From positions 1-14,727 of the IMG/VR virus record IMGVR_UViG_651053023_000012: a stretch of DNA of 14,727 nucleotides. One strand, given 5' to 3'. The notes beneath the pieces were generated by a model. The model had not been told where the DNA came from. It did not search any database and worked only from the letters and a program-made list of their open reading frames with translations. Of the stretch, positions 5,008 to 5,721 are shown piece after piece (positions within the stretch are counted from its first letter, which is position 1; each line of letters opens with the position of its first letter). Both the position numbers and the translations under genes were made by a program. The stretch is from a virus (Duplodnaviria; Heunggongvirae; Uroviricota; Caudoviricetes).

Positions 5008-5721
5008 TCAAAAATCAAGCCCTTGCATAGATACATATCTGTCTGGCGGGAAGCCATAATAGCGGTGAAATACAGAGATAAAGTAGGATCTACTTGAATA
5101 ACCGCATTTTTCTGCTACAGCCTGTCCATATCCATGCCGGGAGCATAACATATTTACAGCAACCCGCATCCGTTCCTCAAGTAACAAATTACTGAACCTG
5201 AGACCTTCATCCTTGAGTTTTTTCTTTAACAAGCTCTCACTCATATGCAACTGTAGAGCAATCGCACCAAGCGTCCAGCTTGCTGATATATCTGTTTGAA
5301 TTATCGCTCTGACTTTGGCACTTATACTGGATAAACATCCACTTAAAAATAATAACATCCGTTCATCTGATTCAAACAACGACAGGCAGGCCATCATAAG
5401 AAACATGTCCGTGGTCTCTCCGGAAAGTCTCTGGCTGGTAATTAAAGCCACAGCCAACGCAGGATTGTTGGGTTCCTGCGACAAGTAAAGCGGAATGTCA
5501 GTCAGAGGAGTTCTTGTCAGCTTATGCTGACTTTCCAGATATTGACTTACTATAGAATGGTTTATATCGACAATTTTAACTTTGCCATAATGCATAAGGA
5601 AAAGCTCCCTGATGCATTTGGTGGCCAAAACAACTGAGCCGGGCTTAAGTGACAACGTATCCTTTTCAAGAAAAATATTAATTGGGGAGCAAACCATGAT
5701 AACTGAACAGACAACAGCCAT
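5008..5721 (-). CDS. AraC/XylS-family transcriptional regulator (AppY-like prophage-encoded regulator).
   Basis: C-terminal AraC HTH region (SESLLKKKLKDEGLRFSNLLLEERMRVAVNML...AEKCGYSSRSYFISVFHRYYGFPP). The N-terminus MAVVCSVIMVCSP resembles AppY (MDYVCSVVFICQS, recalled). The gene is AT-rich. Confidence 0.8.
   Translation of the reverse strand: MAVVCSVIMVCSPINIFLEKDTLSLKPGSVVLATKCIRELFLMHYGKVKIVDINHSIVSQYLESQHKLTRTPLTDIPLYLSQEPNNPALAVALITSQRLSGETTDMFLMMACLSLFESDERMLLFLSGCLSSISAKVRAIIQTDISASWTLGAIALQLHMSESLLKKKLKDEGLRFSNLLLEERMRVAVNMLCSRHGYGQAVAEKCGYSSRSYFISVFHRYYGFPPDRYVSMQGLDF

Follow-up and report, generated by a model that had tools for sequence, protein, structure and literature searches.

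A PsrA/PsrB-family regulator gene among the late genes of a decayed lambdoid prophage, with a putative role in acid resistance

Introduction

Which regulator is encoded at positions 5,008 to 5,721 of IMG/VR record IMGVR_UViG_651053023_000012, and does it act for the phage that carries it or for the bacterium? The DNA analysed here, referred to as the window, is the whole stretch of 14,727 nucleotides of that record. It matches the porcine ETEC / edema-disease strains ETEC1716 and O141:H4 P13-6 at 99.8–99.9%, and its prophage is a decayed lambdoid remnant of porcine ETEC / edema-disease E. coli. A sequence-only reading had described the gene as an AppY-like regulator of the AraC family carried as cargo in the late region. 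The account favoured here, to which we give a probability of about 0.8, is that the gene belongs, as an intact allele, to the PsrA/PsrB family (prophage-encoded secretion regulator), and that it is a putative late-region moron with an inferred role in acid resistance. The family is already known and the gene is ordinary prophage cargo. The main value of the assignment lies in annotation: a protein labelled generically in RefSeq and PHROGs can be named as a Psr-family regulator.

An intact gene of the AraC/XylS family

The ORF listing gives the psr-like gene as an intact frame on the minus strand (5008–5721), running from ATG to stop and encoding 237 amino acids. It is a genuine gene and not a chance ORF, since its product scores above the Pfam cut-offs, PGAP calls the same CDS, the protein occurs on 790 public contigs and dN/dS is 0.18. 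In the porcine strains PGAP names the CDS WP_096098552.1, “helix-turn-helix domain-containing protein”; the matches on the 790 contigs are to exactly this protein. The Pfam families HTH_AraC (47.2 bits against a cut-off of 26.6, in two stretches) and HTH_18 (41.1 bits against 33.6) together cover residues 155–229, and the C-terminal region of ~100 amino acids with two helix-turn-helix motifs that is expected of AraC/XylS regulators is present. The membership of that family proposed from the sequence is thus confirmed; the profile search did not point to an unrelated family, and the gene is not disrupted. Its description as AT-rich holds to a moderate degree, the GC content being 41.6% against 47.1% for the window. 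PHROGs places the protein in phrog_1450 (E 5e-93), which is labelled “unknown function”, and PADLOC found no defence-system match for it.

Residues 1–8 (MAVVCSVI) pair in the alignment with the start of GadW, YdeO and AppY, and C5 does not vary. Because of this alignment the 237-residue start is supported by homology, which speaks against the 195-residue form of the older Sakai annotation. In the Sakai record ECs_1087 and ECs_2191 are both annotated 42 codons short (195 aa).

Compared by sequence with solved structures, the protein matches the DNA-binding domain of GadX (3mkl, E 1.3e-19) and also Rns, CsvR and ToxT. The AlphaFold model, built on a 13-sequence alignment, reaches a pLDDT of only 66; it has an N-terminal beta-sheet (residues 3–54), a helical linker and seven helices at 135–232. 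The best full-length Foldseek matches of this model are Rns, CsvR and ToxT at a global TM-score of ~0.3, and at the level of domains the DNA-binding domain of GadX is matched with a TM of 0.62 and 43–45% identity. Given the pLDDT and the global TM-score, the structure serves as domain-level support only.

Relation to GadX, GadW, YdeO and AppY

The alignment to AppY/GadX/YdeO-type regulators that had been proposed as a check places the protein in the same group. It aligns end to end with three K-12 paralogues, GadW (35% identity), AppY (30%; 30.5% to one decimal) and YdeO (30%), and with the C-terminal part only of GadX (39%). The N-terminal motif MxxVCSVI is common to the regulator, GadW, YdeO and AppY, and is missing from GadX; all four paralogues have the two-domain architecture and the DNA-binding-domain invariants seen in the regulator. 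Judged by these alignments, the regulator belongs to the GadX/GadW/YdeO/AppY subfamily and is the orthologue of none of its members. Three candidate orthologies were rejected: YdeO, with 109.9 bits against an NCBIfam equivalog cut-off of 348 and 30% identity; GadX, with 91.1 bits against an NCBIfam equivalog cut-off of 500; and AppY, for whose orthologue high identity and a place at the DLP12 end next to ompT would be expected, with 30.5% identity and with appY lying at the end of DLP12 after tail-fibre remnants.

The label “AppY-like” is accordingly apt at the level of the subfamily, with its end-to-end alignment and shared motif, but AppY itself is a distant paralogue, whereas PsrA and PsrB are 91.6% identical and syntenic. 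It is scarcely credible that the gene is an AppY orthologue controlling the AppY regulon (hya, cbdAB-appA, anaerobiosis, phosphate starvation, RpoS stabilisation). AppY has the full-length alignment and the MxxVCSVI motif in common with the regulator and is also prophage-borne, on DLP12; nevertheless, its 30% identity lies below that of GadW (35%) and of the PatE candidate ECs_0287 (38%), appY is found at the far DLP12 end past the tail-fibre remnants and not between Q and tRNAs, and no such distance separates the regulator from PsrA and PsrB.

Position in the late region

The features around the gene are listed in Table 1.

Table 1. Features flanking the psr-like gene, in the order in which they follow one another on the minus strand
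Feature	Position	Strand	Details
Q antiterminator gene	6247..6921	minus	Pfam Phage_antiter_Q, E 2.1e-91; PGAP start at 6915
PR'-like late promoter candidate	6214..6242	minus	TTGCAA, 17-nt spacer, TATATT; 9/12 consensus match
Intrinsic terminator	6137..6163	minus	CCCGCC-TCCG-GGCGGG followed by 7 T; fold -22.9 kcal/mol
TrmB-family small regulator gene, frameshifted remnant	5838..6001	minus	PGAP pseudogene in the identical region of P13-6
Sigma-70-like promoter, predicted	5757..5784	minus	ATGAGA, 16-nt spacer, TATAAT; 10/12 consensus match
psr-like gene	5008..5721	minus	N-terminal regulatory domain, residues 1-130; two-HTH DNA-binding domain, residues ~134-231
tRNA, anticodon CAT	4906..4981	minus	tRNA-Ile2 (ileZ-type) by PGAP; Met by ARAGORN
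tRNA-Thr(TGT)	4750-4825	minus	
tRNA-Gly(TCC)	4672-4746	minus	
Two tandem intrinsic terminators	4351..4409	minus	Between tRNA cluster and lysis genes
Lysis cassette, two holins and M15 endolysin	3176..4246	minus	Pfam Phage_holin_8, Phage_holin_3_7, Peptidase_M15_4

The placement of the gene between a late promoter and a tRNA cluster, as first described, is borne out by the Q gene and the PR'-like promoter and terminator before it and the tRNAs after it. The promoter is a consensus match, and its candidate role in late transcription is suggested by its adjacency to the Q stop codon. The terminator behind it occupies the position of lambda tR' and would be read through under active Q. The lysis cassette provides context, marking the downstream late operon.

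Beyond the lysis genes, after which the prophage is truncated, all that is left is a gene for a phosphatase together with a chimeric tail-tip ORF; the head and tail genes are gone. Neither the window nor the 20-kb region of strain P13-6 contains a pch regulator or effector genes. The link of PsrA and PsrB with T3SS effector loci and Pch is a reported EHEC association and not a functional requirement. Rfam returned only tRNAs, sok and IS009 for the window, with no sRNA near the psr-like gene.

The gene had also been likened to the toxin or virulence morons of other lambdoid prophages. Late-region cargo it is, but the toxin genes of Stx phages lie downstream of the tRNAs and the psr-like gene lies upstream of them, and the stretch from the tRNAs to the holin genes yielded no stx remnant. 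A moron is expected to be a non-essential gene that stands between modules with its own promoter and its own terminator; here a predicted promoter is present and an own terminator absent. Window positions 4260–4759 have no counterpart in the Stx2k phage, which has argN/argO, stx2k and iraM there.

Location within the late transcription unit raises the alternative that the regulator serves the phage and not the host, for example by acting on the adjacent tRNAs, the late genes or the timing of lysis. The tRNA(CAT) starts 26 nt past the psr stop codon with no terminator in between, and the link from psr to tRNA is conserved across prophages. Even so, such a role is very unlikely, as the gene has been kept intact and under purifying selection although the prophage has lost all head and tail genes, and the reported PsrA and PsrB targets (gadE, yhiF, hdeA) are chromosomal.

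Relation to PsrA and PsrB of O157:H7 Sakai

The window protein is 91.6% identical to the extended ECs_1087 of Sakai prophage Sp4 and equally 91.6% identical to ECs_2191 of Sp11, in both cases across all 237 residues and with no gaps; ECs_2191 and ECs_1087 are 90.7% identical to each other. A 2026 paper from the Tree lab, which named the family, identifies psrA as ecs1087 in Sp4 (PMC13502914), and reviews describe PsrB (z2104, OI-57) as 90% identical to PsrA (PMC10877973, PMC8565820). From the 90.7% identity to ECs_1087 and the gene content of OI-57 we infer that ECs_2191 is PsrB; Sp11 has pchB together with the nleG2-3, nleG5-2 and nleG6-2 effectors. On protein identity, the window gene adds a third, uncharacterised allele to a known family, at equal distance from PsrA and PsrB. 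Six more Psr homologues from a pangenome analysis are mentioned in the reviews (PMC10877973, PMC8565820).

Gene order agrees with this assignment. ECs_1087 lies between the Q antiterminator and ileZ-argN-argO in Sp4, and ECs_2191 between Q and ileZ in Sp11. In Sakai Sp4 and Sp11, in EDL933 and in phage phiSTEC1575-Stx2k alike, Q is followed in turn by a TrmB-like gene, psr and an ileZ-type tRNA. The window presents the same slot, a lambdoid late region in which Q is followed by psr and tRNA(CAT), as in Sp4 and Sp11.

One point in the literature is in conflict with these positions. The reviews put psrA (z1789) on OI-50 (PMC10877973, PMC8565820), but the Sakai counterpart of OI-50 is Sp6 (espK, espN, espX7), which has no psr gene. 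In the search for the second O157 copy, a psr gene was absent from Sp6, Sp9, Sp10 and one backbone stretch, and was located in Sp11. The conflict over OI-50 and Sp4 leaves the family assignment unaffected, and the ecs1087 designation (PMC13502914) is relied on here.

Predicted promoter and loss of an upstream terminator

The -10 hexamer of the predicted sigma-70-like promoter ends 35 nt upstream of the psr ATG. Its TATAAT is invariant and its -35 region conserved among the window, Sakai Sp4 and phage phiSTEC1575-Stx2k; Sakai Sp4 and Sp11 and the Stx2k phage also keep the short distance between psr and the tRNA behind it. Because psr has this conserved promoter of its own, the gene can plausibly be expressed in a lysogen without Q. 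H-NS silencing could keep it off, and the promoter is a consensus match only.

Relative to Sakai Sp4 and phiSTEC1575-Stx2k, the window has a 36-bp deletion at ~5855/5856. This deletion takes out a terminator stem (GCCTTCA-N4-TGAAGGC then T6) which in Sakai and the Stx2k phage stands between the TrmB-like gene and the psr promoter; the TrmB-family gene itself is intact (73 aa) in the Stx2k phage. With the stem deleted, read-through from upstream into psr is likelier in the window, where the psr-like gene is no longer insulated against upstream transcription. No terminator lies between the psr-like gene and the tRNAs, the first terminators standing after the tRNA cluster.

Distribution and selection

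A psr gene is present in 725 of 5,426 complete E. coli genomes (~13%), and every one of the 726 matching records spans 80% of the gene or more. Strains of O157:H7 usually have two psr copies, at ~92.6% DNA identity. The single “plasmid” match in the gene search is due to “plasmid unnamed2” of the EDL933 assembly NZ_CP124741.1. This 287-kb record has lambdoid late genes, psrA and pch, and is probably a mis-assigned chromosomal contig.

Between the window gene and psrA there are 53 nucleotide and 20 amino-acid differences (dS 0.229, dN 0.041, dN/dS 0.18), and by this measure the psr-like gene is under purifying selection. The ratio bears on the possibility that the gene is merely carried along in a decaying prophage, its ORF intact but unexpressed through xenogeneic silencing and contributing nothing to the host. 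The gene is AT-rich, the prophage is heavily degraded, and deletion of psrB alone is reported to have little effect (PMC10877973). The dN/dS value and the conserved promoter nevertheless argue against silence, as do the coverage of the gene in every matching record and the finding that psrA expression in Sakai is measurable and regulated (PMC13502914), and we regard a silent passenger as unlikely.

Proposed function

The mechanism of PsrA, PsrB and PatE is taken here from reviews, which bear out the earlier claim that prophage AraC regulators can rewire acid resistance and virulence (PMC10877973, PMC8565820). PsrA and PsrB activate gadE, yhiF and hdeA, by which acid resistance is raised and type III secretion indirectly repressed; PsrB binds the gadE promoter and the hdeA promoter at -132 to -45 and raises survival at pH 2.5–3.5 and in the mouse stomach, while PsrA contributes to persistence in sheep (PMC10877973, PMC8565820). 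AppY, PsrB and PatE are cited jointly as prophage AraC regulators which plug into the AR2 acid-resistance system (PMC10057817). Even with only 10% between them, PsrA and PsrB reportedly differ in what their deletion does (PMC10877973).

By homology, the window protein would activate genes of the core acid fitness island. In the proposed sequence of events the regulator would bind AT-rich sites upstream of gadE and hdeA in this island, and the levels of GadE and YhiF would rise. Glutamate-dependent acid resistance and periplasmic chaperones would then be switched on, allowing better survival at low pH, and in LEE-positive strains the same cascade would be expected to repress type III secretion. 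Porcine ETEC and edema-disease strains are generally LEE-negative. As the hosts of the window prophage are presumed to be so too, the expected output in porcine hosts is acid resistance alone.

The recognition helices bear on whether the targets are the same. The first predicted recognition helix of the window protein is SESLLKKKLKDEG, the consensus common to GadW, YdeO and GadX, and the targets of the window allele could differ from those of PsrA and PsrB because substitutions lie in or near these helices. In LEE-negative porcine strains a shifted DNA specificity might direct the protein to another regulon, for instance to genes for fimbriae or toxins, after the manner of Rns-type regulators in human ETEC. 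Helix 1 has K167 and D171 where PsrA and PsrB have I or T at 167 and N171, helix 2 has R211 against W in PsrA, and among solved structures Rns and CsvR come closest over the full length. However, the regulators with which helix 1 forms a consensus, GadW, YdeO and GadX, all act on the acid fitness island, and R211 is common to PsrB, so that a shift of this kind is quite unlikely. A broader possibility, which we hold to be just as improbable, is that in LEE-negative porcine strains the regulon differs from that of PsrA and PsrB and that the gene may be co-transcribed with the Q-dependent late operon and tRNAs, coupling acid-resistance or colonisation genes to induction. A different regulon or Q-coupled expression is conceivable because helix 1 is of the ancestral, GadW/YdeO-like form and the upstream terminator has been lost.

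Activation of the acid fitness island remains the preferred reading, and Psr-type regulators travel with Stx phages. Should the allele behave as PsrA and PsrB do, porcine ETEC and edema-disease strains would be better able to survive the stomach, and the Psr module would be kept outside LEE-positive pathotypes. That, if true, argues for acid resistance, and not the control of type III secretion, as the selected trait.

Other features of the window

Several further features were observed elsewhere in the window. Downstream of the lysis cassette, an AT-rich segment (31–40% GC) at 2512–3104 on the plus strand contains a gene resembling PmrG/Ais-type LPS core heptose(II)-phosphate phosphatases. 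It is split in the window into ORFs 2512–2982 and 2886–3104, pointing to a frameshift; in strain P13-6 the PGAP annotation has it intact, with 181 aa. At 702–2132 on the minus strand a chimeric ORF of 476 aa is a fusion of a DUF1441 N-terminus with 23 aa from the M15 endolysin and with the C-terminal domains of tail-tip protein J. A stretch of 79 bp from the endolysin gene (3325–3401) recurs at 1839–1917. The chimeric ORF looks like a deletion scar from the loss of all head and tail genes.

A 269-aa ORF with CxxC motifs lies at 10157–10966 on the plus strand, opposite to its neighbours, in an island of 33–37% GC. It has no Pfam or PADLOC match and only phrog_21495 (unknown function), and it may be a further moron. 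At 9377–9701 on the minus strand lies a hok/sok type I toxin-antitoxin module, with a Pfam HOK_GEF match for a 70-aa ORF and an Rfam sok match of 110 bits at 9527–9701. A full-length Rfam IS009 match (230 bits) lies at 41–239 on the minus strand, within the tail-fibre-assembly gene region.

Comparison with known systems

Rns, CsvR and ToxT are the best full-length solved-structure matches both by sequence (Rns, E ~5e-17) and by fold, at ~20% identity and with a global TM-score of ~0.3 against a model of pLDDT 66. Within the subfamily, GadX, GadW, YdeO and AppY all act on acid-resistance genes; the first three are chromosomal and AppY is not. PatE (z0321, OI-8; candidate Sakai ECs_0287) is likewise prophage-borne and of the same subfamily, but only 38% identical to the regulator. 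ECs_0287, the likely PatE of Sp1, is situated outside the late region, past the tail-fibre genes at the end of the prophage. PatE is reported to activate gadE, gadBC and hdeAB (PMC10877973).

PsrA (ECs_1087) has the same length of 237 aa and the same slot as the window gene, with the -10 hexamer conserved. It differs by 20 substitutions, of which K167I, D171N and R211W lie inside the pair of predicted recognition helices and L174H, R175M and N178R just past the first helix. In its prophage, Sp4, Q is followed by an additional CAAX-protease gene, the tRNAs include those for Arg, and pchA stands at a distance of four genes; the window, in contrast, has Thr and Gly tRNAs, lacks pch and effector genes, and no longer has the terminator that precedes the psr promoter. 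PsrB (ECs_2191) also agrees with the window gene in length and slot and has R211 in common with it; unlike the window protein, it has T167, N171 and G174/M175/R178 in and after recognition helix 1, and it is linked to pchB and nleG effectors. Both O157 and the Stx phages have argN/argO where the window has tRNA-Thr and tRNA-Gly.

The closest sequence found, at 94.5%, is the allele of the Stx2k phage phiSTEC1575-Stx2k (WCJ00157.1; cluster P0002). Its recognition helices are identical to those of the window protein, and it lies in the same gene order with the same holin/holin/M15 cassette. In that phage Q, the TrmB-like gene, the psr-like gene and three tRNAs are followed by stx2kAB, iraM and holin/holin/M15. 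The phage is complete, with argN/argO, stx2k and iraM after the first tRNA, whereas the window is a remnant without stx.
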